Assembly: GCA_964497535.1 (NCBI GenBank)
Contig: CAZCCG010000001.1
Location: 2,688 to 66,687, forward strand
Reading direction: 5' to 3'
DNA: 64,000 nt
DNA from: an uncultured Gammaproteobacteria bacterium
GTDB taxonomy: Bacteria > Patescibacteriota > Microgenomatia > Levybacterales > UBA12049
The notes under the pieces are model-generated. The model made no database searches and was not told where the DNA came from. It saw nothing but the letters and a program-made list of their open reading frames with translations. The position numbers and the translations under genes were made by a program. Below, piece by piece: positions 1 through 62,662 of this stretch (the first letter of the stretch is position 1; every line of letters starts with the position of its first letter).

Positions 1-279
1 ATGTGTGAAGGGGTTACTTTTGCAATCCTTGGGATTATCCTATACGGCGTGGTCAGCACCTTAGCTGGGATAACCGTACAGAAATGTGGCTGGGAGGATT
101 ACCCATGGATCGGCTTTCTCATCTGGCCCATGATGGGCCTGGTAGGAAGCGGTATCGGTCTCTGGGGATGGGAATTCTGCGGATTCAATTTACTAGAGGC
201 TCTGAGCAAAGGAACGGGCTACGCACTATTAGGTATGTTGTTGGCGACCCTCGTAGGCCTATTCTTAGTAGATCGCTAG
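1..279 (+). CDS. membrane protein, 5'-truncated by the window edge (C-terminal part only)
   Basis: ORF is open from base 1. Hydrophobic TM-like segments with G/W-rich loops. Higher GC than the genome background. Confidence 0.35.
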   Translation: MCEGVTFAILGIILYGVVSTLAGITVQKCGWEDYPWIGFLIWPMMGLVGSGIGLWGWEFCGFNLLEALSKGTGYALLGMLLATLVGLFLVDR

Positions 280-299
280 TTGAGAAAGGAGCATATATC

Positions 300-653
300 A
301 TGTCTGCGATGAATCGTGTCGTGAGTTCGCAGAAGGTCTGCGAACGCTGTGGGATGCTTCTCATCTCGGGCCAGGTAAAACTGGTCCGCAACAGAGGCAT
401 CTTCTGCTTGTCCTGCGCTCCGGTGGAGCAACAGGAACAAATCAGCCAACGCTGGCACCAGTACTGGTTCAAGTGTAAAAAGCTGGGAATGACGCTCGTC
501 ATCCTCTACACTATCTTCTGGTTCGCCGTAGCCAATGCTACCATCCCTACTTGGATGGCTGCACTGGTAGCTTATCTAACCATCCTATATGCCATGGGCA
601 TGGCGCTCTTGATTCACGAAGACGTCAACGCCCAAAAAGCCGACGGGCTATAA
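300..653 (+). CDS. zinc-ribbon (CxxC...CxxC) protein with C-terminal transmembrane helices
   Basis: RBS GAAAGGAG lies 8 nt upstream of ATG at 300. CERCG...CLSC motif, followed by two hydrophobic helices. The track ORF 84-653 probably starts too early. Confidence 0.5.
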   Translation: MSAMNRVVSSQKVCERCGMLLISGQVKLVRNRGIFCLSCAPVEQQEQISQRWHQYWFKCKKLGMTLVILYTIFWFAVANATIPTWMAALVAYLTILYAMGMALLIHEDVNAQKADGL

Positions 654-13638: not shown

Positions 13639-13644
13639 AATAAT

Positions 13645-13775
13645 TCGGTTATCGGTTCTCAGTCTTCAGTTTTCGGATCCGAGTTTGCCAGTTTTCTGTT
13701 GATCAGTCAGAACCAATAGACTGAACCCCGATTAACCTACATCTGACAACAGATAACCGAGAACTGATAACTGGT
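13645..13775. repeat. MITE-like intergenic repeat family A, copy 1
   Basis: ttcggttatcggttctcagtcttcagttttc...gacaacagataaccgagaactgataactgg. Near-identical copies at 48585 and 56630. Confidence 0.8.
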
Positions 13776-16231: not shown

Positions 16232-16385
16232 GACTACAGTCTACGGTCTACAGCCAATCATGAATTAAGAATAAAGAATTATCCTTCGGCTGTGCTCAGG
16301 ACAAGTGAATCAAGGCGATACCATAACTCATAATTCATACTTCATAATTCCCAACTGTTAATTCTGAGAGGTAGTCAGTAGACTT
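16232..16385. repeat. MITE-like intergenic repeat family B, copy 1
   Basis: ...ccttcggctgtgctcaggacaagtgaatcaagg...cataactcataattcatacttcataattcccaactgttaattc, with inverted ctacagtctac / gtagac termini. Confidence 0.8.
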
Positions 16386-28586: not shown

Positions 28587-28865
28587 ATGATCATGAACCG
28601 AGCCAAAAACCTCTTTACCCTGAATATGCTGGGTATGATTCTGTTAGCTGTTCTCAGCGCAGGATGTTTGCCGAATAGGCAAAACATGTATCCATCTCAA
28701 GGAGGATTTAATCCTCTGATAAAACCGACCTCGGTCATCGCGCAAGCAACCCCAACAGTAGCGCCAAGAATGTCCAACGGCATCTACCCGGATATAGAAA
28801 CCCAACGAGCCATGATGCTACTCATCATCAGACCCATAGGAGGACTCGATGTGGCAACGGATTAA
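28587..28865 (+). CDS. small lipoprotein, hypothetical
   Basis: Lipobox-like LLAVLSAGC. Confidence 0.45.
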   Translation: MIMNRAKNLFTLNMLGMILLAVLSAGCLPNRQNMYPSQGGFNPLIKPTSVIAQATPTVAPRMSNGIYPDIETQRAMMLLIIRPIGGLDVATD

Positions 28866-29043
28866 GCATCTTCTCGGATCCAAGTGGACCATGGGGTTTC
28901 TGGCATTTCTTGTAGCAGTGGGTTTCATTGCAGCCAAAAAACCGGAACTGGTGAAGGAGGTCAACGGCCCCTGGTGGGTTAGCGTCACGAGTGCCTTCTC
29001 TCTGCTCTGGAGTTGGCTACATCACCGAAACAAAGACGAGTAG
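28849..29043 (+). CDS. small membrane protein
   Basis: 64 aa with one TM helix. Confidence 0.3.
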   Translation: MWQRIKHLLGSKWTMGFLAFLVAVGFIAAKKPELVKEVNGPWWVSVTSAFSLLWSWLHHRNKDE

Positions 29044-29330
29044 GAGTGACTCTCATGCTTATACTTGCACTAGTGATTGCGGGCGTAGTCTTTGAGGGAC
29101 TTTGCCTGGTAGGACTCTACTCTATCGGAGGCCGCCACTTGGTCGAAAACGGCATCTTCTTCAGTTGCGAAGCAGTTCTGAGTGGATTTGTCCTGTGGCG
29201 CTCGGCTCTTTGGGCAGACACGATGAAGTCCTGGAGACAGCATCTGGCTGTTGGTCTCTGTATGATCGCAGCCTTCTTTACCATCCTCAGTGTAGTAGCC
29301 CTCACGCTACCCTTTATCTTGTTTGACTGA
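29013..29330 (+). CDS. membrane protein, hypothetical
   Basis: 105 aa with three TM helices. Confidence 0.4.
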   Translation: MATSPKQRRVGVTLMLILALVIAGVVFEGLCLVGLYSIGGRHLVENGIFFSCEAVLSGFVLWRSALWADTMKSWRQHLAVGLCMIAAFFTILSVVALTLPFILFD

Positions 29331-34094: not shown

Positions 34095-34240
34095 CTTGAC
34101 TACAGTCTAATCATGAATTAAGAATAAAGAATTATCCTTCGGCTGTGCTCAGGACGAGTGAATCAAGGTAATACCATAACTCATAATTCATACTTCATAA
34201 TTCCCAATTGTTAACTACTGACTGCTAACTCCTCCTATAT
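34095..34240. repeat. repeat family B, copy 2
   Basis: Near-identical to 16232-16385. Confidence 0.8.
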
Positions 34241-37779: not shown

Positions 37780-38118
37780 TTGCTAATCAAAATATGTATA
37801 ATAGTTCATATGAAGCCTGAACAAGACAACCAACAATATGAAGAACTCATTGTAACATTTATAGAAAAGGGGTTAGAAAACGGGACGCTCAACATAGATC
37901 AGGCAAGAAAAATAGCAGAGAGCGCATTAACACATATTGACCCTGCTCCGACTTCACCGGAAGAATATGACCAACAAACACTAACCACCATTACTACATT
38001 TCCAGAGCTTAAACCACTTACTCCCAAAGTTGGGCAAACAGAAGATCCACAGCAATCAGATAAAGCTATTGGCGATATACATAAAGCACTACAAGACGAA
38101 CAAATCAATGATAGATAA
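37780..38118 (+). CDS. hypothetical acidic protein
   Basis: 112-aa ORF. Confidence 0.3.
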   Translation: MLIKICIIVHMKPEQDNQQYEELIVTFIEKGLENGTLNIDQARKIAESALTHIDPAPTSPEEYDQQTLTTITTFPELKPLTPKVGQTEDPQQSDKAIGDIHKALQDEQINDR

Positions 38119-39412
38119 CAACGCAGGACTGGATCAGCAATCAGCGAAACAGAACCAGCCAGAGCTTTCAGTAGTACACCCAAAAGAGCCTCCTCCCCCC
38201 CCAGAATCAGAAAAAAATGAAGGAAAGAAACTTGCTGCATTTGCACAAAGGGTGAAAAACATTGGGGGGACCGCACGAGACCGCTTAGCAGCAATAGCCT
38301 ATGAATCAGATTATAGTCCTGGAAGAGAATTCCTGCTTACACGCTTCAATCAATTTGTTGAAAGACTGCAAAGGGCTGAGAAAGAACCGCAAAAACTTGA
38401 AATGGAAACATATGGCAATATGGATGTCCTTGCCCTCTTGAGAGGAGAGTTATCAAAAGAAGATCCGACAATTCCGGAAACACAGAAACGCAAATTAATG
38501 GTTCTGCTACTCGGTGGTGGACAATCTGGCATTATTGGAGCCGGCGTTGTTCGAGCAATGGAAAAAGCTGGCGTTTTGGATACGGTAGATGGCTTCATTG
38601 GAGGATCAGCTGGATCATGTGCAATTCCCTGTATTGCAACCAGAACAACAGAACAAGGAGCGCAGATTTATCTCAAAAATGCAGAAAATAACAACTTTGT
38701 AAAATTACCAAAAGGGATACGCAACAGAGTGAAAGCACTGTGGGATTTATATCGTCATGGGTCAAAAAAAGCAGTTATCGATACAGAATTTGTTTGTAAT
38801 GAAATAAGCCAACTGGTTGATCCTAGAATTGATATGATTAAAAACTGTCATCAAGAACTCAAAGTAATTGTTATGGATACTGCTACAGGAAGACCAATGG
38901 TTGTTGATTTAAAGACACTAGAAAATCCTATGCAGGCAATACGGGGATCAACATGCGTACCAGGAGCATCAACTCTTTCTTCTGTTGAGTTGAATGGAAA
39001 ACAAGTTGCTGATGGTGCCTATGCAAAACAGATTCCTCTCCAAGAAGCTTTCCTAGAAGGAGCTACGGATGTACTGATTATTGCCAACTCACCCTTGGGA
39101 CAAGCAGGAGGAGTCTTAAGTGATTTACAAGCAATAGTAATGGCTCAAGCAGCACGAGGGTATGGATATAATAACCATGTGCGTCAAACCATTAGTGACT
39201 ATGACCAACGATGGAACGAACAATCTCGATTCGTTAATCATATTATACAAATGAATAACCCTAACCGTCGCGTTGCAGTTATGGCTCCAAAAAAAAGTGT
39301 TATTTCCCCTATCGAAGACCGAAAAGTAGTATTAGAAGATGCATTTAGTCGTGCAGAATCCTTTGGACAAGAAGTAGTAAAACCACAAAGAGCTATGGCT
39401 CAAGCAGCATAA
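38108..39412 (+). CDS. patatin-like phospholipase with ~150-aa N-terminal extension
   Basis: LLGGGQSGIIGAG (GGGxxG oxyanion loop) and GGSAGS (GxSxG). Confidence 0.6.
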   Translation: MIDNNAGLDQQSAKQNQPELSVVHPKEPPPPPESEKNEGKKLAAFAQRVKNIGGTARDRLAAIAYESDYSPGREFLLTRFNQFVERLQRAEKEPQKLEMETYGNMDVLALLRGELSKEDPTIPETQKRKLMVLLLGGGQSGIIGAGVVRAMEKAGVLDTVDGFIGGSAGSCAIPCIATRTTEQGAQIYLKNAENNNFVKLPKGIRNRVKALWDLYRHGSKKAVIDTEFVCNEISQLVDPRIDMIKNCHQELKVIVMDTATGRPMVVDLKTLENPMQAIRGSTCVPGASTLSSVELNGKQVADGAYAKQIPLQEAFLEGATDVLIIANSPLGQAGGVLSDLQAIVMAQAARGYGYNNHVRQTISDYDQRWNEQSRFVNHIIQMNNPNRRVAVMAPKKSVISPIEDRKVVLEDAFSRAESFGQEVVKPQRAMAQAA

Positions 39413-40439: not shown

Positions 40440-40540
40440 AATTTTTGACCCCTGAGCAGATTCGAAGGACTCCTTTAGTGTAACACAAGCATTATAACTC
40501 TAGATGAGAATAGATGCTATATAAGATAGCCAAATTATAT

Positions 40541-40876
40541 TTAGCCTTGATTTTTTATGGTTTGAGGAGCAATAAATACTACTTTACGGAGTGGCATTTC
40601 ACAAATTCCTTCTTGTACGAGCTGCCCTACCACCTCGGCTTCTGGCTCATTTCCGCGTCTGCAAATCCCACGCAGTTCTACCCCAGGTACATTATGATAG
40701 ATTCCCTGTTCATCTTTACTAACATGATTTCGTGCATCAAAGGTAATTGGTCCAACGTAGACATTATCTACTGCTCTAAGCACCTCACGGGCGCGAGCTT
40801 CGTCTTCATCCCGGCAAACGAATTTAAACAACGTTATATCTGTAATCTCTCCTTCTTTCATATGGTTCACCATCAA
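40541..40876 (-). CDS. hypothetical protein
   Basis: 111-aa ORF; no family recognised. Confidence 0.4.
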   Translation of the reverse strand: MMVNHMKEGEITDITLFKFVCRDEDEARAREVLRAVDNVYVGPITFDARNHVSKDEQGIYHNVPGVELRGICRRGNEPEAEVVGQLVQEGICEMPLRKVVFIAPQTIKNQG

Positions 40877-40904
40877 TCTTTCCCAAAATTCAGGTGAGAT
40901 TCTA

Positions 40905-40930: not shown

Positions 40931-41055
40931 TATGTATTATTCTAGCAAATCCTTCCCTGACGGGTTGGGTGTAGCACCGTGCCCTTGGCCGGTTGCTGGA
41001 TGGATCATCGAGCCAATACTCTCCCCATCTCTCACGATTTATTTAATTAATCCTA

Positions 41056-46825: not shown

Positions 46826-47686
46826 ATGAAGCAAATCGGATTACGGGATGCCCACCATGCATTTAAAGATTTTTTAAAGGAAAAAAAGCACTCAACATCT
46901 ACCATTGTAGCATATGGCAAAGACATCGAGCAGCTTGTTTCTTTTTTGGGTGAACTTGAAAAACATCAGGTTCATGAAGTGTCCAGAGAAGACCTGGAAG
47001 CTTTTTTGGGCAAACTTTCTGGAGAAGGCTATACTCCAAAGTCACTTTCCCGCAAAATTAACTCAACTCGAACCTTTTATCGATTCCTCAAGGTAAACGA
47101 ATACCTTACCGACGACCCGTCACTTCTGATCGAACATCCTAAATATGAACTTACTCCCCCACGAATTCTGACCCCAACCGAATATAGAGCACTCCGAGAC
47201 GCAGCCCGCAATGATCCCAGAATGTTTGCTATTATTGAGCTGTTACTCCAAACCGGAATCAGAATTGGAGAATTGGCTAATTTAAGAATGTCAGATATCC
47301 AAAAAGATATGCTGCGCATCCGACCCTACGAAAAACATGAAGAAAGAACAGTTCCTCTCAACAGATCAGCCAAAGAAGCCCTCACTAGATACCTCTCTAT
47401 CCGCCCGGAAGTCAAAGAAGAAAGAATTTTTGTCACCAAATCAGGCAAACCGTTTTTGGTCAGAAACATCAGAACCGCAGTAGAACGATATTTCCGACTT
47501 GCTGAGATCAAAACAGCCAAGGTAAATGATCTACGACACACCTTTGTCGCCCATCACTTGAAACATGGAGTATCCCTTATCCTTCTCTCAAAGATACTCG
47601 GACACAAGAGACTTTCTACCACTGAACGATATCTCGAATACGTGAAAGATAGGGCTAAAGAAACCGCTACATTAACAGAATTATAA
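46826..47686 (+). CDS. tyrosine recombinase (XerC/XerD-like phage-integrase family)
   Basis: N-terminal SAM-like core-binding domain. C-terminal R...HxxR...Y: LRHTFVAHHL...LGHKRLSTTERY. Confidence 0.8.
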   Translation: MKQIGLRDAHHAFKDFLKEKKHSTSTIVAYGKDIEQLVSFLGELEKHQVHEVSREDLEAFLGKLSGEGYTPKSLSRKINSTRTFYRFLKVNEYLTDDPSLLIEHPKYELTPPRILTPTEYRALRDAARNDPRMFAIIELLLQTGIRIGELANLRMSDIQKDMLRIRPYEKHEERTVPLNRSAKEALTRYLSIRPEVKEERIFVTKSGKPFLVRNIRTAVERYFRLAEIKTAKVNDLRHTFVAHHLKHGVSLILLSKILGHKRLSTTERYLEYVKDRAKETATLTEL

Positions 47687-48443: not shown

Positions 48444-48463
48444 AGTATCTCTTCTCTCAACTG

Positions 48464-48534
48464 TAGGCCCAGAGGGAATCGGACCCCCGTCAAGTGTGTA
48501 TAAGACACCCGCTCTACCATTGAGCTATGGGCCT
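48464..48534 (-). tRNA. tRNA with anticodon TAT (tRNA-Ile-UAU, AUA-decoding)
   Basis: Hand-folded. Perfect 7-bp acceptor AGGCCCA/TGGGCCT, D-arm GCTC-AATGGTA-GAGC, anticodon loop CTTATAC, T-arm GGGGG-TCCGATT-CCCTC. Confidence 0.65.
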
Positions 48535-48584
48535 GGGAACTACGTAATTTTACCAGAGAGAGCTCAAGGAGACAAGCCAGGACT

Positions 48585-48715
48585 CGGTTACCAGTTCTCT
48601 GTTTTCTGTCATCAGATAGAAGTTCGTCAGTTTTCGGTACTTCAGTTTTAACAGATTAACTGAGAACAGATAAACCCGCATCTGATAACTGACAACCAAA
48701 AACCGATAACTGAAG
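48585..48715. repeat. repeat family A, copy 2
   Basis: Diverged copy of the 13645 element. Confidence 0.7.
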
Positions 48716-48724
48716 TTTCTATTC

Positions 48725-51091
48725 TTATAATCGAGCACGTTGTCCTATTTCTGCTTCGACCACGTGTACATCGCGGCCGTATTTGAGGCGGGAAAGCTCT
48801 TTGACGAGCTCGGAGACTCTCAAGTTCATCATAGATTTCTCAACAGCAACATCTTTGGTAGTATCCAGAGAAAAGGGAGGTACCGGTTCTCCCCCCACAA
48901 TAGTACGCACATAACAATTATACTTATCGACATTAATCAAATCTGCTTCGGTAAATACTGGCGTGAATTCATGCTGCAAATAGTTGGCATCAGTCACACC
49001 TACACGGAATGACGCAATCGTACCAACGTTTCCAAAAATAGCGTTTTTGACCTCTTCATCCATTTGTCCGATAAATTGGTTGGCAACAATCAACGACAAA
49101 CGGTATTTTCGGGCTTCAGATAGTATTTGGGCAAAATCAGGAGTCGCAAAGTTTTGAAACTCATCAACATAGAGAAAGAAATCACGCCGCAGCTCTTTGG
49201 CCATTGTCTGCCGGCTCATAGCAGCCACCAAAATCTGCGGTACGATAATAAGACCCAGGAAGTTGGAGTTCTCTTCCCCGATTTTACCTTTTGATAAATC
49301 AATGAGAAGAATTTTTCCCTCATCCATAGCTTTTCGCGCGTTAAACGCGCTTTCCGATTGTCCAATAATATTTCGAATCATTTTGTTGGTAACAAAGCGG
49401 CCGAATTTGGAGACGATATAATCCAACACTTCGGATTTATGAAAATCAGAGGTTTGGGCAATCTGATCTGTCCAGTACCTTCGAATAACCGGATCTTCTA
49501 CTTTTGGCAATAACTCTTGCACAAAGTTTTGATCTGTTAATGCCCGCACTACTTCCATAAATGTCGCGCCCGGTTCATACATACAGGTAAGCATGGCATT
49601 TCGCACTGCGTGTTCAAAACGGGGTCCAATAATACCGGTCTTATTTGGATCAAAGAGCTTGTACATAAGCCCAATGACTGAAGACACTACCAAATGTTTC
49701 TGTTGCTCAGTCTCGCCATAGAGCATGTTCATACCCAATGGCCGCTGTGTATCTGAAGGATCAAAAAGAATGACGTCTTCTGCCCGATTTGGCGGCATCA
49801 GCCGCAATATATCTTCAATCAAATCACCATGAGGATCAATAACAGCCAATCCCTCGCCTGCTTTGATGTCTTGCATAATCATTGATTTCAAAAGCTCTGA
49901 TTTCCCCGTACCGGTCTTTCCAATGATATACATATGCCGCATACGATCCTCTCGTTCAATATATACGGGTTTTGAAACACCTCGAAAGACACTATTTCCC
50001 AAAAAAGTACCGCTTGTTGGCAATTTTGCAGGAGCGGGAGCCCGTTTGGAGTCGACCCAATGAATCCCGGGGGTAGTAACGCTTTTATTGGGTAAGTGGA
50101 ACAATGTTGCTAATTCTTCTGAAGATAAGATACTTTTGCCACCAAACAGGGGCATATACCGATATAAAAAGTCCTGCATAAACATATTTCTGGTAAAAAA
50201 GTATGATTTATGCTTGGTAAATGAATTGAGTCCTTCAAATTGAGCAAATGCACTTCGAATATTATGCAAATGTGCTTCCGCTGCCTCAGTACTGCTGGAG
50301 GAGACAACAATACGAATAACCGATTTAAATCCTGGTTTTGAAGTTTTGTTGTCAACCCCTTCTAATTCTTTTTGGTCTGTCGAGTAACTTGCTTTTTCAG
50401 GATTTGATTCATTCTTTTTAGTCTTGGCGAGATATTTTTTCCCAATTTTTTTCCAGGATGAATCTGCAGGCTCCAACATAATCTGAATTGCAGCCCCCTC
50501 CCCCGGAGACATTTTTGCCAATACTGAAGTTATAGAAGCCAAAGGATCAGTTGGTAAGTCTTTAAAAACCTTGATTGGCAAATAGTTGGATGATTTCAGT
50601 GTTAACGTAATAAAAGCAACCTTCCCTGTTTCAGAAAAAATATTGTATTCATTACCTACAATATTTTCTATTTTTTGCCGGGAATGTTTGGGGTCGACAA
50701 TAGTAATATCTGCCTCAGGATATGCTCCGTTGATTTGTTTTTCTACCAAATCACGATATTTATTGGGAGTATGAACATAGAAGCGGATATCCCCCGGCAT
50801 ACCGACAATTTCAAAAGAAAGTGTCGGCTGAGAACGAAAAAAATCAAGATTACCGGTCCTACGAAGAGATGAAAGGCTGGCAAACATCTGTTCGGCCGCA
50901 TCAATTTTGATCTCGTTATTGCGAGGAACAGCAATCTGCAGAAGTGTTGAGTTAAGCGCGTCTGATTCTCGTCCCCGATTTCTATACCATAACAGCAATA
51001 GACGCCCCAACAGGAACAAGAATCCTGCACCGAATAGAAGTCCCACAAGACTTACTAACAGTACCAAAAGTGATGATGTAATATCTGTCAT
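48725..51091 (-). CDS. membrane-anchored P-loop ATPase, TraG/VirD4/TraD (type-IV coupling protein) or HerA/DUF87-like
   Basis: N-terminal TM helix. MYIIGKTGTGKSELL Walker A, IDPHGDL, Walker-B-like FLYVDEFQNF, RKYRLSLIVANQ. Confidence 0.55.
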   Translation of the reverse strand: MTDITSSLLVLLVSLVGLLFGAGFLFLLGRLLLLWYRNRGRESDALNSTLLQIAVPRNNEIKIDAAEQMFASLSSLRRTGNLDFFRSQPTLSFEIVGMPGDIRFYVHTPNKYRDLVEKQINGAYPEADITIVDPKHSRQKIENIVGNEYNIFSETGKVAFITLTLKSSNYLPIKVFKDLPTDPLASITSVLAKMSPGEGAAIQIMLEPADSSWKKIGKKYLAKTKKNESNPEKASYSTDQKELEGVDNKTSKPGFKSVIRIVVSSSSTEAAEAHLHNIRSAFAQFEGLNSFTKHKSYFFTRNMFMQDFLYRYMPLFGGKSILSSEELATLFHLPNKSVTTPGIHWVDSKRAPAPAKLPTSGTFLGNSVFRGVSKPVYIEREDRMRHMYIIGKTGTGKSELLKSMIMQDIKAGEGLAVIDPHGDLIEDILRLMPPNRAEDVILFDPSDTQRPLGMNMLYGETEQQKHLVVSSVIGLMYKLFDPNKTGIIGPRFEHAVRNAMLTCMYEPGATFMEVVRALTDQNFVQELLPKVEDPVIRRYWTDQIAQTSDFHKSEVLDYIVSKFGRFVTNKMIRNIIGQSESAFNARKAMDEGKILLIDLSKGKIGEENSNFLGLIIVPQILVAAMSRQTMAKELRRDFFLYVDEFQNFATPDFAQILSEARKYRLSLIVANQFIGQMDEEVKNAIFGNVGTIASFRVGVTDANYLQHEFTPVFTEADLINVDKYNCYVRTIVGGEPVPPFSLDTTKDVAVEKSMMNLRVSELVKELSRLKYGRDVHVVEAEIGQRARL

Positions 51092-52765: not shown

Positions 52766-53365
52766 TTATTCATGGGTTCTCCATTCTATTTCTTTTTTCT
52801 TTTCTCTCATATTTACATAGCGAGCCATGGTAAATAGTACATCTGCCAAACGGTTCAGATATGCGACAATCTGCTCTTCTACCGCTTCTCCTTCAAATAA
52901 ATTAATTACTCTTCGTTCTGCCCTGCGGCAAATAGAGCGGGCCAGATGCACCGACGAACCCGCAACCGAACCGCTGGGCAAAATAAAAGAATGCATTGGC
53001 TTGAGTTTTTCAGTAAGTTCATCAATCGTCTGTTCCAATTCTTTGACACGCTTTTTTAAATATGATGGCAAGGTTTTGTGGATCTCCATTCCCTTGGTCA
53101 CATGAGTATCATGAGGGGTTGCCAACACTGCACCGATTTCAAATAAATCCTTTTGTATCTGATCCAATTCATTTTTGAAGTTCTTCTTATATTTTTGGTT
53201 TTTAACTCTCGAGTTTTGGATTTGTGCACTGGCAAAACCCAATGCGCTATTGAGTTCATCAACAGTCCCAACAGCGTCAATTCGCCCGGAGCTTTTTGAG
53301 ATTCTCTTGCCTCCAAACAGTGATGTTTCTCCCCTGTCTCCAGTACGTGTATAGATTTTACTCAT
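52766..53365 (-). CDS. pduO: PduO-type ATP:cob(I)alamin adenosyltransferase
   Basis: MSKIYTRTGDRGETSL...GRIDAVGTVDELNSALG signature. Confidence 0.85.
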   Translation of the reverse strand: MSKIYTRTGDRGETSLFGGKRISKSSGRIDAVGTVDELNSALGFASAQIQNSRVKNQKYKKNFKNELDQIQKDLFEIGAVLATPHDTHVTKGMEIHKTLPSYLKKRVKELEQTIDELTEKLKPMHSFILPSGSVAGSSVHLARSICRRAERRVINLFEGEAVEEQIVAYLNRLADVLFTMARYVNMREKKKEIEWRTHE

Positions 53366-53864
53366 AAAAAATCCTCCTTGTTTCAGAACCCAAGAAGGAT
53401 GTGCGCACAAAAAAAATCCTGCTCGGGAACATCCACCAGCTGGCGGAAAAAGTATAGTTTTCTGGCTTTCCCTTCAATTCACTCAGGTAAAGGAAAATTT
53501 ATCCTGAGCTTGTCGAAGGACAGTAGCGGCACTGCCATGGATTTGCACCATGATTGCCTATACTTCCAATTTTTTATACTACGCTCTTTCTTTTTTGCAA
53601 TCAATACCCTATAACAAATTGCCTCTGTGAAGTAACTGGAGTATAATAGCTAGATTCAAAGTTGATCAAATCACTATTTGCGATCTGATTTTCTTTGAAA
53701 TCAGTACCTTAACATGTATGGAATAAATACCCTTTTTTCTCGGCAGAGACCACAGGAATGACAGTATCACCGATACTCTTTCTTTGGTCTTTGCTAAGAG
53801 GAGGGCAAAGGAAGAAACGGTAGACAATGCATCCATTACGCAACTCTCATAAGAGAAGGAGCTA

Positions 53865-54023
53865 TGGGTCAACAAGAAATCATCCACTGTGGCCAGTGCG
53901 GGACACCCATTCACATAACTAACCTTAAGCAAGTTCCACGAGCTGAAGGGATAGAGCTGAAATGCCCCGTCTGCCACGGTACACCCATAGTCAAACCCTA
54001 CTGTGAGTCTCGCGACAATTAGG
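53865..54023 (+). CDS. small zinc-ribbon protein (52 aa), absent from the ORF track
   Basis: Strong RBS AGAAGGAG 5 nt before the ATG. MGQQEIIHCGQCGT...CPVCHG, i.e. CxxC...CxxC. Confidence 0.45.
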
Positions 54024-54032
54024 GGAGTCCTG

Positions 54033-54317
54033 ATGGATCAGATTCCACCTCTCTGTGGCATCGAACGATGCAAACCTAGGGGTAGAAAGTTCAAAGTGGT
54101 CGTTATCAACCAGCACGCGCTGGGTGATGAAGCCATCACGAGGGCACTCTCACATCAACAGGGAAACTACAACCATCCTTTGGATATTACATCTCTGCGG
54201 GAACTCAGCAAAGAGAACGCAGAAGCATGGTGCGCCATGATAAATGACGTGCATCAGAAACTGGTAGCCTTCATCACACCGCCCGAGAACAAGAAGACAG
54301 TTGCACAGGAGGCATGA
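54033..54317 (+). CDS. hypothetical protein (high-GC island)
   Basis: MDQIPPLCGIERC..., with RBS GGGGAG. Confidence 0.4.
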   Translation: MDQIPPLCGIERCKPRGRKFKVVVINQHALGDEAITRALSHQQGNYNHPLDITSLRELSKENAEAWCAMINDVHQKLVAFITPPENKKTVAQEA

Positions 54318-54318
54318 T

Positions 54319-55128
54319 ATGCAACTTCTCGATGGGAAAACTGCTCTGATCTTTGGCGTTGCCAACGAGCGTAGTTTGGCCTGGGGCATCGCACAGGCGC
54401 TTGCCGCCCAGGGTGCAATGTTGGCGTTTACTTACGCAGCAGACGCGCTGGAGAAGCGGGTTCGCCCGCTAGCTGCTCAGGTCGGTTCCCACTTCGTCGA
54501 GCGCTGCGACGTTCAAGATGACACCGAGCTGGATACGGTATTCCGTCGCTTCGGCGAAGAATATTATCCACGGCTCGATATCCTTGTTCATGCAGTTGCG
54601 TTTGCAAAGCGAGAAGAACTCGCTGGACGCTACGTAGATACCTCCCGTGAGGGATTCCAATTGGCCCTCGACGTAAGTGCCTACTCCCTGGTGGCACTTG
54701 CTAAACGAGCTGCGCCGCTGATGGCAGGCACCAACCCGAGCATCCTGACGCTGACCTACGACGGCTCGCAACGCACGTATCCCAACTATAACGTGATGGG
54801 AGTGGCAAAAGCCGCTCTTGAGGCGAGTGTGCGATACCTCGCCCGAGATTTGAGCCCGGATGGTATTCGGATCAACGCAATCTCCGCTGGTCCAGTTCGG
54901 ACACTTGCATCATCTGGAATCCGTGGATTCCACTGGATTCTGGATCATGGTGCAGAACGAGCACCGCTACGTCGTAACATCGGACAAAGTGATGTCGGGG
55001 ATGCCGCTGTCTACCTCAGCTCTGACCTGGCCCGTAATGTCACAGGTCACGTGTTGTATGTTGATGCCGGTTCTCACATTGTTGGCGCAGAGCTAGGTGC
55101 CAGCGAGCGGGAAACTGCTGGCGACTAA
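54319..55128 (+). CDS. fabI: enoyl-[acyl-carrier-protein] reductase (NADH), FabI
   Basis: LDGKTALIFGVANERSLAWGIA N-terminus and the Y-x6-K region (YNVMGVAKAALE). ~57% GC. Confidence 0.9.
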   Translation: MQLLDGKTALIFGVANERSLAWGIAQALAAQGAMLAFTYAADALEKRVRPLAAQVGSHFVERCDVQDDTELDTVFRRFGEEYYPRLDILVHAVAFAKREELAGRYVDTSREGFQLALDVSAYSLVALAKRAAPLMAGTNPSILTLTYDGSQRTYPNYNVMGVAKAALEASVRYLARDLSPDGIRINAISAGPVRTLASSGIRGFHWILDHGAERAPLRRNIGQSDVGDAAVYLSSDLARNVTGHVLYVDAGSHIVGAELGASERETAGD

Positions 55129-55462
55129 TCCATTCCACACATCCTATCAGGGCGAGAGGGTGCAATCTTGTACTCTCCGCCCTGTAATTTTTACTTTTCA
55201 GCATTGGTTCGCGTAACGATCCGCGTAGTTCAGCGGTATTTTTGCGTTCTCTCTTCTTTTCCTCTATAATTCCAAACGAAGAATAATTCAGTTCCTTGTA
55301 GACTGTTGTTTTTCGCACATTTACATGTCTGCGCAAAAAAATCTTTGTTACAGAAGCAACGGCTATGGGAAGATAACTCCTTATCTTTCTGTAGGCTTTG
55401 CTTCTTCCTTCTTGGGTGCAACCCAAGAAAAATAACAGAGAAGCACGTCAGAAAGGGAACCC

Positions 55463-55915
55463 ATGAAATACAAAAGGCTTGTGAGTATTGTAGGAAACGG
55501 GATGCTGATGGTGGCGGGTCTTGGGCTTATGACAATCCCCACCAACATGCTGGTAATCATTCTGGGGATATCAGTCTATTCTATCGGAGTACTACAGTTC
55601 ATACAAGCACTTCGGCCCAGACCCCTGGTGAGACACTATGTCACCGACTTTGGTTATCGACTCGAGTTCTACCGACAAGCAGAGCTCTGGATATTTCGAC
55701 TTCAAAGGAAAAGGGGGAACAGACGTTTTAACCAATGGTATACCATCAGTCAATCCAGCTATTCTCCCCCCTTGACTCCCACGGGACTACACAGTCTGTA
55801 CGAACAGATATATAGAGGAGTGGATGCGGGATATGACCTGGAAGCAGGACGCCTCTGGAACCATATGCTGACATACCTGCACGGGCATCAACTCTTGGTA
55901 GGAGAATCTGCGTAA
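55463..55915 (+). CDS. membrane protein, hypothetical (high-GC island)
   Basis: Two N-terminal TM helices. Confidence 0.45.
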   Translation: MKYKRLVSIVGNGMLMVAGLGLMTIPTNMLVIILGISVYSIGVLQFIQALRPRPLVRHYVTDFGYRLEFYRQAELWIFRLQRKRGNRRFNQWYTISQSSYSPPLTPTGLHSLYEQIYRGVDAGYDLEAGRLWNHMLTYLHGHQLLVGESA

Positions 55916-55928
55916 GAAAGGACTGACT

Positions 55929-56531
55929 ATGCGTATCGCAGTCTTGTCTGAGGAACCCATCACTGAGTTCCCCCAGGAGGAGGGATTCGAGTGGACACGC
56001 GTCGGTCTCGACCCAGCAACCTGGTCACCCGGAAAATTCGATTGCTTCGTAGTGAAAAGCCCATACAGGAAACTCTTTATCCAGGAAGTAACCAAGAGGT
56101 GGAAATCCCGGAGCGATTTCCCTGCAGCTCCTTACCTTATGGTGTCACGCCGAGGACGGGTTCCCAAGGATTACCGCGACGGGTTCGACGGGTATGTGGT
56201 AAAACTACAGGAACTTGTAGAGTTTGCAGGAGCCATCAGCGACCGCAAGAGAGACTACGCCAACCGTAACAGAGTAGACACCCGACCTCCGTTGGAGCCT
56301 CCCCCTGTAGGTGAGAATCTATCCTGTTCCGAGTGCGGCCTGCTTCTGCGTACGACCGATCACGAAAAAGAGGGAGAGGACTATACCCCGTTCGTAGAAG
56401 AACGAACCCGGGGATGGGAAATCCCTTGTCCGGGATGCCACAACCCCCTGCGTATCTACGAATCGGTTACTGGACCCATACCCGAGTGGCAACCCCTCGT
56501 GGATGAGGCAGACTTGGGACGAGGCGTCTAG
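55929..56531 (+). CDS. hypothetical protein with C-terminal zinc ribbon
   Basis: CSECG...CPGCHNP. Confidence 0.5.
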   Translation: MRIAVLSEEPITEFPQEEGFEWTRVGLDPATWSPGKFDCFVVKSPYRKLFIQEVTKRWKSRSDFPAAPYLMVSRRGRVPKDYRDGFDGYVVKLQELVEFAGAISDRKRDYANRNRVDTRPPLEPPPVGENLSCSECGLLLRTTDHEKEGEDYTPFVEERTRGWEIPCPGCHNPLRIYESVTGPIPEWQPLVDEADLGRGV

Positions 56532-56556
56532 TACCACGCGCAGACACACCACACCA

Positions 56557-56583
56557 GGGCGGTCGAGTCTGACTCGACCGCCC
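56557..56583. repeat. GC-rich palindromic hairpin GGTCGAGTCTGACTCGACC (family shared with 662-686 and 63894-63917)
   Basis: gggcggtcgagtctgactcgaccgccc. Confidence 0.8.
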
Positions 56584-56629
56584 CCAAACATCCTCTACTA
56601 AATGCACCCATTGAAAGCTAAAATATGAA

Positions 56630-56762
56630 GTTCGGTTATCGGTTCTCAGTCTTCGGTTTTCAGATAAAGGTTCTTCAGTTTTCTGTTTATCAGTTAGAAC
56701 CGAAAGACCGATCACTGGTAAACTTCGCTCCGACAACTGACAACAGAGAACTGATAAGTGGA
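56630..56762. repeat. repeat family A, copy 3
   Basis: ttcggttatcggttctcagtcttcggttttc...gacaacagagaactgataagtgg. Confidence 0.8.
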
Positions 56763-56827
56763 ATAGATCCGCGTAAATCCGCTCTAAATCCGTGAAAATC
56801 AATTGAGGTATTGAAGAAATTGAACTA

Positions 56828-56869
56828 TACGCCACCAGCCTCGCCAGACGCGAGTCTAGGCGGGAACGC
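56828..56869. repeat. 42-bp inverted repeat, left copy (partner at 59806-59851) flanking nrdJ-nrdR
   Basis: tacgccaccagcctcgccagacgcgagtctaggcgggaacgc. Confidence 0.9.
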
Positions 56870-56888
56870 TTCTAACTAAACACTCCGG

Positions 56889-59267
56889 TTAGCAGGCGGA
56901 ATATCCGCAGGAGAAACATTTCTTGCAGCCTTCCTGATATGCCAGGGTCCCTGATCCACAATCAGGACAAATATCAAATAAATCAGTGTTGGGTAATCCT
57001 GTCGCTCCGCCTTCCAGGGTCAATTGCTGCATCATTGAAGATTTTTCTTCTGGTTCTGCCGCAACTGTATCCGCAGCAACCGGTGCATGATTATTTAGAC
57101 TCATCTTATCCTCTACGTGCCCATTCACTACAAATCCTGAATACTTTGCCATCACTTTTGCTACGGCGTCAGGCAATGATCTCACTCGATTGGGACCAAA
57201 CCCGACACTGCCTGAACCCCCAATACCTGCTAATTCTCCAACCAACGTTCTCATACGTTCTCTCCCCGGCACCGGGCTTGAGAGCCGCAAGAACTGAGAA
57301 ATAATGCGACCCAATGCATCTGCCATTGCCATGACATCTGATCCGGATTTTCCATGGTTGATAAAGACTTCAAACGGTTCATTTCCCCCATCATGATTAA
57401 TGGTAATATACACTTTTCCGGTTGGGGTCTCAGTCGCATATGTTACTCCCTGCACAACCATGGGACGAGGCAAAATCGGCTGTTCTTTTGCTTGCTCTAC
57501 AATCTCTTTTTTGACTTCTTCTTTTTTCTGATCCTCAACACGGGAGAGTACTCCTTCGCGGGATCCATCGCGCATATAGGTTACTCCTTTGAGTCCCAGA
57601 TCATACGCTGCCATGTAGAGTATCTTTACATCCTCAACAGTGTGGGAGTTAGGAGCATTCACAGTCTTTGAAATAGATGAATCAATATATTCCTGCGCAA
57701 CTGCTTGTACCTGAGCATGCTCCATGGGGTTTAAATCGTTTGCGCCGACATAATACCCCGGCTTTTCTGCATCTGGATGGTCTTTTTTCCATTCTTCAAA
57801 GAGCGGATGATACATGATGTGTTCTCCGGTTCGATCCCGTCGGATAAAGGTGAATTCATATACCGGTTCGACCCCTGATGAGACACCGGACAGAAGACTT
57901 GTCGTACCGGTTGGGGCAATCGTCAATAGCACTGCATTACGAATCCCCTGTTTTTTAATTTTGTCCCTGATTTTCTTTGGCAATGCTTTGATGTGATAGC
58001 CTTTCATATACTTTTTATTATCAAATTTGGGGAAGGCTCCTTTTTCTTTGGCAATATCAGAAGATGCATCATAGGCATTGTCACGAAGAACCTGGAACAT
58101 CTTTCGAATCGTCGGCATTGCTTCCTCTGATCCATAGCGCAGTTTCATTTTTATCAATGCGTCAGCAAGTCCCATGATCCCCAGTCCCGTTCGTCTGATC
58201 TCTTTGGCAATCTGCTCATTCTCAGGGAAGAAATAATAAGTCTGATCAATAACATTGTCCAAAAACCGCATGGCAACACGAACATCTTTACCAAACTGGT
58301 CAAAATCAAATTTCTCATCTTTCACATACGCTGCCAGATTCATGGCACCCAGATTGCATACTGCCCATGGCCCAAGCGGTTGCTCTCCACAGGGATTGGT
58401 TGCAACCAGTCTTTCAAAATACCAGGTGTTTGACCGCTTGTTGGATCGCTCCAGAAAATGAAGTCCCGGTTCTGCACTTCTCCATGCAGCAGTACAGATC
58501 AAATCCCACAAATATTTTGCTTTGATAGTCTTGTAGACTTTGACTTTCCCACCCATTTTCTTCCATTCATCCAGTTCCCCTCTCCAATGGGTATCATAAC
58601 GGGGATCATCCAGATCAGCGTATACCAGATCCCAATCTGAATCTTTTTTGACTGCTTCCATGAAAGCATCCGATACACAAACCGACAAATTGGCACCATT
58701 GATCTTTGAGAGGTCTTGTTTGACTGTAATAAATTCTTCAACATCCGGATGCCAATCCCACAGCATAAGCATTGTGGCCCCACGACGAGTACCGCCTTGT
58801 TGCACGACATCATGAGTTGCGTAGGAGAAAAGCCCTGCCCACGTGACTGGACCCGATGAAGTTCCATTGACCTTTTTGACACGCGCGCCACGCGGTCGAA
58901 GAGATGAAAGATTAAGCCCTACTCCGCCTGAGCGGGATTGAATTTCAACCAATTGTTTGAGTGAGTCCAAAATTCCTTCTCGTGAATCTTTGGGAGATGG
59001 GATAACGAAACAATTAAAATACGTAACCTGGTATCCTGTTCCGGCACCGGATAAGATGCGCCCACCGGGAACAAATTTAAAATCGGACATGACATTATAA
59101 AATGCCTCTTCCCACTGTGCCCGTTTTGGAGCTTTTTCAATTTCTGCGATACCCCGAGCAACCCGTCTCCACATGTCTTCTGGTGTTGGTTCTGTGGGAT
59201 TCCCCTCTTTATCTTTCAAAGAGTATCGATCCAAAAATACTTTTTCGCGAATTCCGTCAAGTTTCAT
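56889..59267 (-). CDS. nrdJ: adenosylcobalamin-dependent ribonucleotide reductase (class II, monomeric type)
   Basis: NPCGEQPL active-site motif, B12-binding region, C-terminal zinc ribbon CPDCGSG...CKKCFSCG. Confidence 0.9.
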   Translation of the reverse strand: MKLDGIREKVFLDRYSLKDKEGNPTEPTPEDMWRRVARGIAEIEKAPKRAQWEEAFYNVMSDFKFVPGGRILSGAGTGYQVTYFNCFVIPSPKDSREGILDSLKQLVEIQSRSGGVGLNLSSLRPRGARVKKVNGTSSGPVTWAGLFSYATHDVVQQGGTRRGATMLMLWDWHPDVEEFITVKQDLSKINGANLSVCVSDAFMEAVKKDSDWDLVYADLDDPRYDTHWRGELDEWKKMGGKVKVYKTIKAKYLWDLICTAAWRSAEPGLHFLERSNKRSNTWYFERLVATNPCGEQPLGPWAVCNLGAMNLAAYVKDEKFDFDQFGKDVRVAMRFLDNVIDQTYYFFPENEQIAKEIRRTGLGIMGLADALIKMKLRYGSEEAMPTIRKMFQVLRDNAYDASSDIAKEKGAFPKFDNKKYMKGYHIKALPKKIRDKIKKQGIRNAVLLTIAPTGTTSLLSGVSSGVEPVYEFTFIRRDRTGEHIMYHPLFEEWKKDHPDAEKPGYYVGANDLNPMEHAQVQAVAQEYIDSSISKTVNAPNSHTVEDVKILYMAAYDLGLKGVTYMRDGSREGVLSRVEDQKKEEVKKEIVEQAKEQPILPRPMVVQGVTYATETPTGKVYITINHDGGNEPFEVFINHGKSGSDVMAMADALGRIISQFLRLSSPVPGRERMRTLVGELAGIGGSGSVGFGPNRVRSLPDAVAKVMAKYSGFVVNGHVEDKMSLNNHAPVAADTVAAEPEEKSSMMQQLTLEGGATGLPNTDLFDICPDCGSGTLAYQEGCKKCFSCGYSAC

Positions 59268-59805: not shown

Positions 59806-59851
59806 AGCGTTCCCGCCTAGACTCGCGTCTGGCGAGGCTGGTAGCGTATAG
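59806..59851. repeat. 42-bp inverted repeat, right copy (one mismatch vs 56828-56869)
   Basis: rc = tacgctaccagcctcgccagacgcgagtctaggcgggaacgc. Confidence 0.9.
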
Positions 59852-60098
59852 TTGATTTCTATCGTTCAGTTATCTGCCTATAACTAAATGTTCAAAAAAT
59901 TAGCCGCTCAACGCTCACTACAACTAGTGGTAATAACTAGAATAGGACACTATATATGCGGTGTCAACTGGAAATTTCTGTATCAAAACCCAGCAGTGGT
60001 GTTTTCTAGCTTCATTCTTTGTTTTTTCAGGATTTGCTGAATTGGAGGTGAATTATTGCTGAGAAAAATTGAGTATAAAAAGATGACAACTGAAGAAT

Positions 60099-62480: not shown

Positions 62481-62544
62481 GATAAAACCGGCAAGTGGAT
62501 AAATCCAATGCTACTACAAAATTTTCAATTTGAAATTTTCATTG

Positions 62545-62662
62545 AATCCTTCGACTCCGCTCAGAACAAGTGAATCAAAGCAATACCATAACTCATAATT
62601 CATACTTCATGATTCCCAACTGTTAATTCTTAGCGGTAGACTGTAGTCTGTAGACCACCGTT
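62545..62662. repeat. repeat family B, copy 3
   Basis: ...gaacaagtgaatcaaagcaataccataactcataattcatacttcatgattcccaactgttaattc...gtagactgtagtctgtagacc. Confidence 0.8.

Follow-up and report, generated by a model that had tools for sequence, protein, structure and literature searches.

A GC-rich island with a single fabI gene, predicted to encode an enoyl-[acyl-carrier-protein] (ACP) reductase I, was analyzed in a 64,000-nt stretch of contig CAZCCG010000001.1 from assembly GCA_964497535.1 (positions 2,688 to 66,687 of the forward strand). This whole stretch is called the window below, and all positions are counted from its first letter. The best explanation, with a probability of roughly 0.75, is that a Levybacteria-like bacterium of the Candidate Phyla Radiation (CPR) acquired the island horizontally, that the island has become fixed and has partly ameliorated, and that its fabI core came from high-GC Chloroflexota. 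The island is real, foreign, fixed and functional-looking, and it would represent a clean but fairly ordinary horizontal gene transfer, by which a single metabolic step passed laterally from Chloroflexota to CPR.

The island differs strongly in composition from its surroundings. By maximal-scoring-segment analysis, the best-scoring GC-rich segment is 53884-56585 (2702 nt), with a GC content of 0.525 versus 0.417 for the rest of the window. The background stays at 0.36-0.46 per kb over the 64 kb (1-kb windows outside the island: mean 0.416, standard deviation (sd) 0.026, maximum 0.488), and 53.8-56.6 kb is the sole sustained excursion in the sliding-window analysis. The tetranucleotide usage of the island lies 13.5 sd from that of 42 other 2.7-kb windows, and correlates with that of the remaining sequence at 0.06, compared with at least 0.82 for all other windows. 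In addition, the five co-oriented plus-strand open reading frames (ORFs) of the island, present as described earlier, have a GC content at third codon positions (GC3) of 0.52-0.59 versus a mean of 0.386 for the other ORFs of the window; among the latter, a few reach 0.50-0.62, most of them plus-strand orphans. All five ORFs show the coding-like order GC1 > GC3 > GC2. GC content, GC3 and tetranucleotide usage are all atypical, as expected of an acquired island, and the abrupt rise reported in a preliminary description of this DNA is real, the composition of the window being far from uniform (GC 0.525 versus 0.417; tetranucleotide z = 13.5).

Two details of that description need adjustment. The left edge had been placed at 53740. 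The rise begins at the first ORF (53864), the DNA to the left of it (53599-53863) having a GC content of merely 0.381, although the interval 53740-56590 (GC 0.520) is still essentially the richest of its size, the GC content of 2851-nt windows across the 64 kb peaking at the one that begins at 53739. The GC content of 55-58% given for the block holds for fabI (0.565) and the last ORF, zr200 (0.556), but not for the remaining three ORFs (0.48-0.50). The block is also heterogeneous, with a GC content of 0.543 in 53864-55128, 0.425 in 55129-55462 and 0.523 in 55463-56531, and the 334-nt trough between the two richer segments cuts it into two parts.

The fabI gene is intact, and its product is predicted to be an enoyl-ACP reductase I. 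The protein matches the full length of Pfam profile PF13561 (adh_short_C2; profile positions 1-236 of 236, E = 5.6e-84, 281.8 bits versus a cut-off of 27), all 12 of its best NCBIfam matches are FabI models, and it aligns collinearly over its full length with solved FabI structures (E = 1e-84 to 1e-74; best 2p91, 1.3e-84). The structures aligned, which include Aquifex aeolicus 2p91 and E. coli 1qsg/1c14, belong to the same short-chain dehydrogenase/reductase superfamily as the window protein. The catalytic Tyr-x6-Lys is kept, with YNVMGVAK opposite YNVMGIAK of 2p91, and the N-terminal nucleotide-binding motif is present as GVANERSLAWGIA, which aligns with the cofactor motif of solved FabI.

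The host, as its proteins indicate, is a Patescibacteria/CPR bacterium that is Levybacteria-like. In agreement with the CPR-like host proposed earlier, the FtsH of the window is 74-76% identical to its nearest named relatives, which are assigned to Candidatus Levybacteria, Microgenomates or Patescibacteria, and 91% identical to a protein from run SRR21359062. The gene content of the window is also CPR-like, including MurD, TGT, an ATP-dependent DNA ligase, a DUF5667 protein, a VirD4/HerA-like ATPase, a patatin-like phospholipase and many family-less ORFs.

A search of 5.8 billion clustered proteins placed the window FabI in a clade of tight relatives with 72-91% identity, the next tier dropping to ~62-65%. 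Save for the window and a contig from a sister species, the clade members with available DNA lie on DNA of ~68-75% GC, and the GC3 of their fabI genes is 0.89-0.95. The closest is L085 (91% identity to the window FabI), followed by L102 (87%), L086 (86%), L087 (85%), L090 (84%), L006 and L091 (83%), L093 (80%), L003 and L089 (79%), L005 and L088 (78%), and L007 and L092 (77%); L169 and L170 are further high-GC members. Three of these, L005, L006 and L007, come from GTDB representative genomes that bear the name Chloroflexota bacterium. A glyoxalase-fabI-Rieske-UbiD neighbourhood recurs on several other high-GC contigs. In a neighbour-joining (NJ) tree, both low-GC CPR FabIs nest among sequences from 70-74% GC contigs, of which the named ones are Chloroflexota metagenome-assembled genomes (MAGs), so that the horizontal acquisition of fabI proposed in the preliminary description is supported by this NJ phylogeny. 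The GC3 of fabI is ~0.94 in the high-GC relatives, 0.537 in the window and 0.386 for the mean host gene; at third positions, the gene has thus covered roughly 70% of the distance to host composition. Since the relatives are on high-GC contigs and the GC3 in the window is intermediate, the direction of transfer is read as being from Chloroflexota to CPR.

Some other members of the clade were considered. P0018 and P0025, taken as possible further low-GC recipients, proved to be high-GC, and a FabI contig labelled 'Paceibacteria' (L054) has 61% GC throughout, is uninformative and is probably mis-binned. On L169 (1-1975), a divergent, possibly recombinant fabI of the same clade was seen by eye beside a transposase-like ORF, an arrangement that hints at mobility of fabI among high-GC lineages.

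The same locus is occupied by fabI in a sister species, represented by contigs L004 (from SRR21359062) and L165. On the right side of the island, synteny between L004 and the window is evident from the amino acid identities of NrdJ (92%), NrdR (97%), glyceraldehyde-3-phosphate dehydrogenase (80%), the DUF5667 protein (68%) and a kinase-like protein (58%). Its fabI, the product of which is 85% identical to that of the window, lies immediately beside nrdJ within a shorter GC-rich block (0.55-0.60 inside versus 0.43 outside). The order on L004 is a 58-aa CxxC..CPxC ORF, fabI, a 90-aa CxxC..CPxC ORF, a canonical terminator composed of a hairpin and a U-tract, and nrdJ, with ~120 nt between the second zinc-ribbon ORF and nrdJ. 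The 90-aa ORF is homologous to the C-terminus of zr200 (E = 6e-7), and the 58-aa ORF occupies the same position as zr52, the first island gene, with no alignable similarity to it. The remaining parts of the window locus, namely p94, tm150, the N-terminal domain of zr200, a repeat resembling a miniature inverted-repeat transposable element (MITE) and a 53-nt repeat, are found in the window genome only and not at the L004 locus.

Between the window and L004, fabI has a nonsynonymous divergence (dN) of 0.111 and a saturated synonymous divergence (dS), with a dN/dS of 0.025; the dN/dS between the window and L085 is 0.014. For host genes, comparison of the two CPR species gives a dS of 1.4-3.3 and a dN/dS of 0.009-0.042. 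With its low dN/dS and with dS saturated as in host genes, fabI therefore behaves as a long-resident gene under strong constraint. A recent acquisition does not fit a gene that is common to two species and has saturated synonymous sites.

In the proposed course of events, fabI would have been obtained from a Chloroflexota lineage of 70-74% GC, and the island would have been inserted between the B12-linked host genes pduO and nrdJ. Strong purifying selection would then have preserved the gene in two or more CPR species, during which time its GC3 decayed from ~0.94 toward the host value of ~0.39. As the island lies between pduO and nrdJ, it splits two functionally linked host genes. The features of the island and its flanks are listed in Table 1.

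Table 1 Features of the fabI island and its flanks, in the order of their positions in the window.
Feature	Position	Strand	Remarks
pduO, PduO-type cob(I)alamin adenosyltransferase	52766-53410	-	Left flank; TIGR00636 at 1.6e-54
Cobalamin-riboswitch-like leader of pduO	53439-53598	-	RF00174, 25.9 bits, E = 0.0017; below gathering score 31.5
Sigma-70-like promoter candidate	53619-53647	+	TTGCCT-17-TATAAT; 10/12 consensus positions; in DNA of GC 0.381
zr52, 52-aa four-cysteine CxxC...CPxC zinc-ribbon protein	53864-54022	+	First gene of predicted unit 1; GC3 0.528
p94, 94-aa orphan	54033-54317	+	GC3 0.547; alternative of 104 aa from GTG at 54003
fabI, predicted 269-aa enoyl-[acyl-carrier-protein] reductase I	54319-55128	+	GC3 0.537
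Intrinsic-terminator-like hairpin and T-rich tail	55148-55198	+	End of predicted unit 1; hairpin part 55148-55184
tm150, 150-aa orphan with two N-terminal hydrophobic helices	55463-55915	+	First gene of predicted unit 2; GC3 0.517
zr200, 200-aa protein	55929-56531	+	Orphan N-terminal alpha/beta domain (1-110) and C-terminal zinc ribbon (~112-181, CxxC..CPxC)
GC-rich palindrome, perfect 13+13 nt	56557-56583		GGGCGGTCGAGTC-T-GACTCGACCGCCC; 25 nt past the zr200 stop
MITE-like host repeat copy	56631-56761		Right flank, outside the island
nrdJ, B12-dependent ribonucleotide reductase	56889-59267	-	Right flank; nrdR next

The five ORFs are predicted to form two plus-strand units, zr52-p94-fabI followed by a terminator and tm150-zr200 followed by a GC-rich hairpin. 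Purine-rich Shine-Dalgarno-like motifs with normal spacing precede all five, including a GGAG ahead of the ATG of zr52. The stop codon of p94 lies 1 nt ahead of the fabI start codon, and p94 is called with 94 aa on independent Logan contigs too. The hairpin right after fabI has an RNA fold of -27.6 kcal/mol (z = -7.1) and is followed by UAAUUUUUACUUUUC. The promoter candidate is a consensus match alone, the number of such sites in the region being equal to the shuffle expectation. The palindrome that had been reported to close the block is real and perfect in both arms; it forms the right edge of the GC-rich segment, with an RNA fold of -24.5 kcal/mol (z = -4.9) and no T-run behind it. It is probably an operon-end hairpin; at the equivalent position of the sister locus, there is a canonical terminator.

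The companions of fabI appear, from these comparisons, to be lineage-specific small zinc-ribbon and membrane proteins that do not come from the fabI neighbourhood of the sampled donors. The zinc-ribbon Pfam matches of zr52 are weak and below the cut-off, and neither p94 nor tm150 matches any Pfam, NCBIfam, PHROG or PADLOC family. For zr52, p94, tm150 and the N-terminal domain of zr200, nothing significant was found in PHROGs, PADLOC, Pfam (E up to 1) or the PDB sequences; the top PDB match for the companion ORFs, a CheY-like protein, was dismissed (E = 0.59, not significant). tm150 and zr200 form singleton clusters in a 15-billion-protein collection. A word-indexed search revealed no relatives of zr200, and a full HMMER search of 1.84 billion representatives gave two distant matches only (E = 2e-4 and 6e-4), both of them 73-76-aa zinc-ribbon proteins on short low- to mid-GC contigs, L166 and L167. 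On L166 (1-1013), the zr200-type ribbon is fused to a TIR_2 domain (1.7e-9) and followed by two tandem paralogues; on L167 (1051-1711), a small multi-transmembrane protein precedes the ribbon, which echoes the tm150-zr200 pair of the window. The AlphaFold2 model of zr200, built from the single sequence, is of low confidence (pLDDT 51) and unreliable. The ribbon motif was not found at ~160 other fabI loci searched by motif regular expression, and no match to the companion ORFs was found near fabI on high-GC contigs by tblastn (E up to 5).

Both flanks belong to the host. The cobalamin-riboswitch-like leader of pduO is on the host side of the left boundary, outside the island; as a sub-threshold candidate, it would be a B12-sensing element beside the B12-dependent ribonucleotide reductase. 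The repeat after the palindrome, regarded earlier as a MITE, was confirmed at its position, and two more copies begin at 13644 and 48583, with 70-79% identity among the three. This 131-nt MITE-like family (13644-13774, 48583-48713 and 56631-56761) is partly self-complementary. A second MITE-like family of 106 nt also has three copies in the window (16256-16361, 34109-34214 and 62521-62626). In addition, a 53-nt inverted repeat (94% complementary; 56818-56870 and 59806-59858), absent from sister contig L004, brackets nrdJ and nrdR. A Logan contig covering the island, L001, terminates within the left arm of this repeat, suggesting that the repeat breaks short-read assemblies.

Several observations weigh against the proposed explanation. 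The window FabI scores at best 335.9 bits in NCBIfam, with PRK08159, which has a cut-off of 452; it comes closest to a cut-off with PRK07533 (301 versus 337), and the protein is under every FabI equivalog cut-off, so that NCBI rules would not auto-name it; these misses are attributed to lineage-specific cut-offs and not to another family, because all top matches are FabI models. The sole related genome compared has fabI at the same site. Although the GC3 of all four companions is raised as it is in fabI, none of them has a homologue next to fabI at the ~160 loci, and direct co-transfer from the sampled donors thus does not follow from the data. Moreover, no FabD/H/F/G/Z, PlsX/Y/C or acyl-ACP synthetase was found in the window by Pfam search of ~58 ORFs of at least 120 aa, and no ACP-like match by tblastn with an E. 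coli ACP query, in line with the earlier remark that the window holds no other fatty-acid-synthesis gene; this census covers 64 kb of a contig of at least 393 kb. Finally, NJ bootstrap support is 76% for the window FabI with L085, P0002 and P0003 and 8% for the window FabI with L004, and the two CPR FabIs share no unique residue, having 12 and 11 private residues. The FabIs of the two CPR species do not pair with each other, and a single ancestral acquisition is therefore not demonstrated by the tree.

These last data would be expected if fabI had been acquired twice independently, or later exchanged by allelic replacement, at the same pduO-nrdJ locus in both CPR species, a locus at which foreign DNA would then tend to settle repeatedly. 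Identity to the window FabI is 91% for the protein of high-GC L085 but only 85% for that of the sister species, the quartet-informative sites (4:0:0, 3:0:0 and 1:1:0, according to the outgroup) favour the window with the L085 group, and a common low-GC bias should, if anything, draw the CPR sequences together. However, the informative sites are very few, the tree is an NJ tree only, and the NJ clade that holds both CPR sequences has 72% support. The shared position and the homologous downstream zinc-ribbon ORF are explained more simply by one insertion near the species split, and a simple two-state relaxation estimate would fit such a split-time insertion with a residual GC3 excess. Two acquisitions are accordingly considered unlikely, although they deserve to be weighed seriously.

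The source of the block may also have been less direct. All five genes could have come together from an unsampled donor of ~55% GC, for example a small-genome bacterium with a Chloroflexota-derived fabI, in which case the uniform GC3 of 0.52-0.59 would be largely the donor's own and not the result of amelioration of a gene with 94% GC3. This would suit the similar GC3 of all five ORFs, the companions having no homologues beside fabI on high-GC contigs, and the GC content of the contigs with the only relatives of the zr200 ribbon (0.47 for L166 and 0.42 for L167). No such donor was found, however, among the 5.8 billion clustered proteins or in genome and metagenome scans, and all other sampled members of the FabI clade are at 70-74% GC. 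In addition, the sister species shares only fabI and the zinc ribbon with the window, not p94 or tm150, so that the block was not inherited as five genes. An intermediate donor is thus judged quite improbable.

The preliminary description had also raised the possibility of a mobile cassette. An abrupt composition boundary, the palindrome and the MITE-like repeat at the right end, and a tyrosine recombinase and a VirD4/HerA-like ATPase 3-7 kb upstream are what a currently mobile cassette (integron-like, MITE-mobilized or phage-borne) ending in the palindrome and the MITE might show, but such a cassette is highly improbable here. No recombinase or transposase and no PHROG or PADLOC match was detected within the island, and neither a direct or inverted repeat pair nor a target-site duplication, beyond chance-length matches, brackets 53.6-56.6 kb. 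The MITE lies at just one end and does not occur at the sister locus, where fabI has the same position, and the saturation of dS between the two species points to long residence. A viral vector was considered as well and rejected, the only viral FabI relative being 50% identical and zr200 having no viral relative.

An assembly or binning chimera, by which Chloroflexota DNA was joined to a CPR contig, would account for the sharp composition change and for the nearest FabI relatives being on high-GC contigs, the named ones Chloroflexota MAGs, but its probability is close to nil, as had been anticipated, and it is excluded as far as is possible without reads, because Logan contigs independently assembled from two runs cross the boundaries at 100% identity (L001 from SRR9179563 equals 53513-56863 and spans from inside the pduO leader through the host MITE into the 53-nt repeat; L002 from SRR9179562 equals 54011-55335) and the sister genome, from a different sample, carries fabI adjacent to nrdJ, while the island GC of 0.52 and the fabI GC3 of 0.54 are far from the 0.72 and 0.94 of the high-GC relatives.

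Some further features of the window were noted. Small GC-rich islets occur at 28587-29330 (+) and 84-653 (+), with a GC content of 0.47-0.53 and a GC3 of 0.50-0.62; they consist of plus-strand orphan ORFs, most window genes being on the minus strand, and three small ORFs of membrane-like character lie in the former. Several short pieces of foreign DNA may be present in this genome. Next to one MITE copy lies a tRNA-Ile (48463-48534, -) whose anticodon, TAT, is unusual in bacteria, and beside it are the VirD4/HerA-like ATPase (788 aa, 48725-51091; PADLOC mad8 at 9e-19) and the tyrosine recombinase (46826-47686). A SAM riboswitch (RF00162, 48.3 bits, above the gathering score) lies downstream of tgt at 40944-41043 (-). 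It is located upstream of an unannotated minus-strand region, where the only ORF listed is a plus-strand one of 127 aa (40514-40897).

The window FabI is expected to be an NAD(P)H-dependent enoyl-thioester reductase, and it would catalyze the last reductive step of each type-II elongation cycle. The strong conservation of the protein, together with enoyl-ACPs being its only known substrates, implies that such substrates are available in the cell or reach it from outside. CPR bacteria are generally without fatty-acid synthesis and probably take lipids from their hosts (PMC9938205, PMC7304191, PMC7242380), and no gene of type-II fatty-acid synthesis (FAS-II) was seen on the retrieved parts of the sister contigs either. 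The most likely setting would be a reduced pathway that elongates or remodels acyl chains scavenged from the host, rather than full de novo synthesis. A patatin-like phospholipase encoded at 38030-39412 (+) (PF01734, 7.4e-12) is a candidate for freeing fatty acids from host lipids and is relevant to such a salvage role of fabI.

A bolder and distinctly doubtful version holds that the lineage has no ACP and no other FAS-II component, and that a stand-alone Chloroflexota-derived FabI, perhaps tied functionally to its zinc-ribbon partners, remodels host acyl chains, its gene perhaps having been captured twice at this locus. A free-standing FabI of this kind, if real, would be a minimal way of salvaging lipids that has not been described before in episymbiotic bacteria. 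Should the genome have no other FAS-II gene, the island would point to lipid salvage as an unrecognized use of an enoyl reductase; should the remaining pathway be present, the case is simply the acquisition of a xenologous gene, with little further interest. With a traceable donor clade, visible amelioration and purifying selection in two species, the fixed Chloroflexota-derived island favoured here would illustrate, with a date and a direction, how single metabolic steps are added to reduced genomes.

Compositionally atypical genomic islands that undergo amelioration are described by the model of Lawrence and Ochman. The window island resembles such classical islands in its atypical GC, GC3 and tetranucleotide usage, its phylogenetic incongruence, its intermediate GC3 and its position between conserved host genes. 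Unlike them, it has no integrase, adjacent tRNA or flanking repeats, is only 2.7 kb long and is already present in two species. The setting of the gene also differs from that of known FabI, in that no other FAS-II gene is found in the surrounding 64 kb of this CPR genome region and that in both CPR species the gene is sandwiched by small zinc-ribbon genes, an arrangement not seen at the ~160 other fabI loci.

No paper on the transfer of fabI into CPR/Patescibacteria was found in the literature searched. Partial FAS-II sets have been reported from CPR, including FAS-II homologues without ACP machinery in Nealsonbacteria (PMC7242380) and fabG/fabZ in groundwater CPR MAGs (PMC11608272). In the CPR window, as in these cases (PMC7242380, PMC11608272), the complement of fatty-acid genes is patchy, but here fabI is alone within 64 kb and its origin is demonstrably xenologous. 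Laterally acquired accessory metabolic genes are also known in CPR, such as those for RuBisCO, NiFe hydrogenases and glycolytic enzymes (Jaffe et al. 2020, PMC7304191), and the fabI island is like them in being a sparse non-CPR metabolic gene in a reduced genome typically without lipid synthesis. While those acquisitions (PMC7304191) were inferred to be ancient, with their sources obscured, the window fabI has a donor clade at 91% identity, and its compositional scar is still visible.

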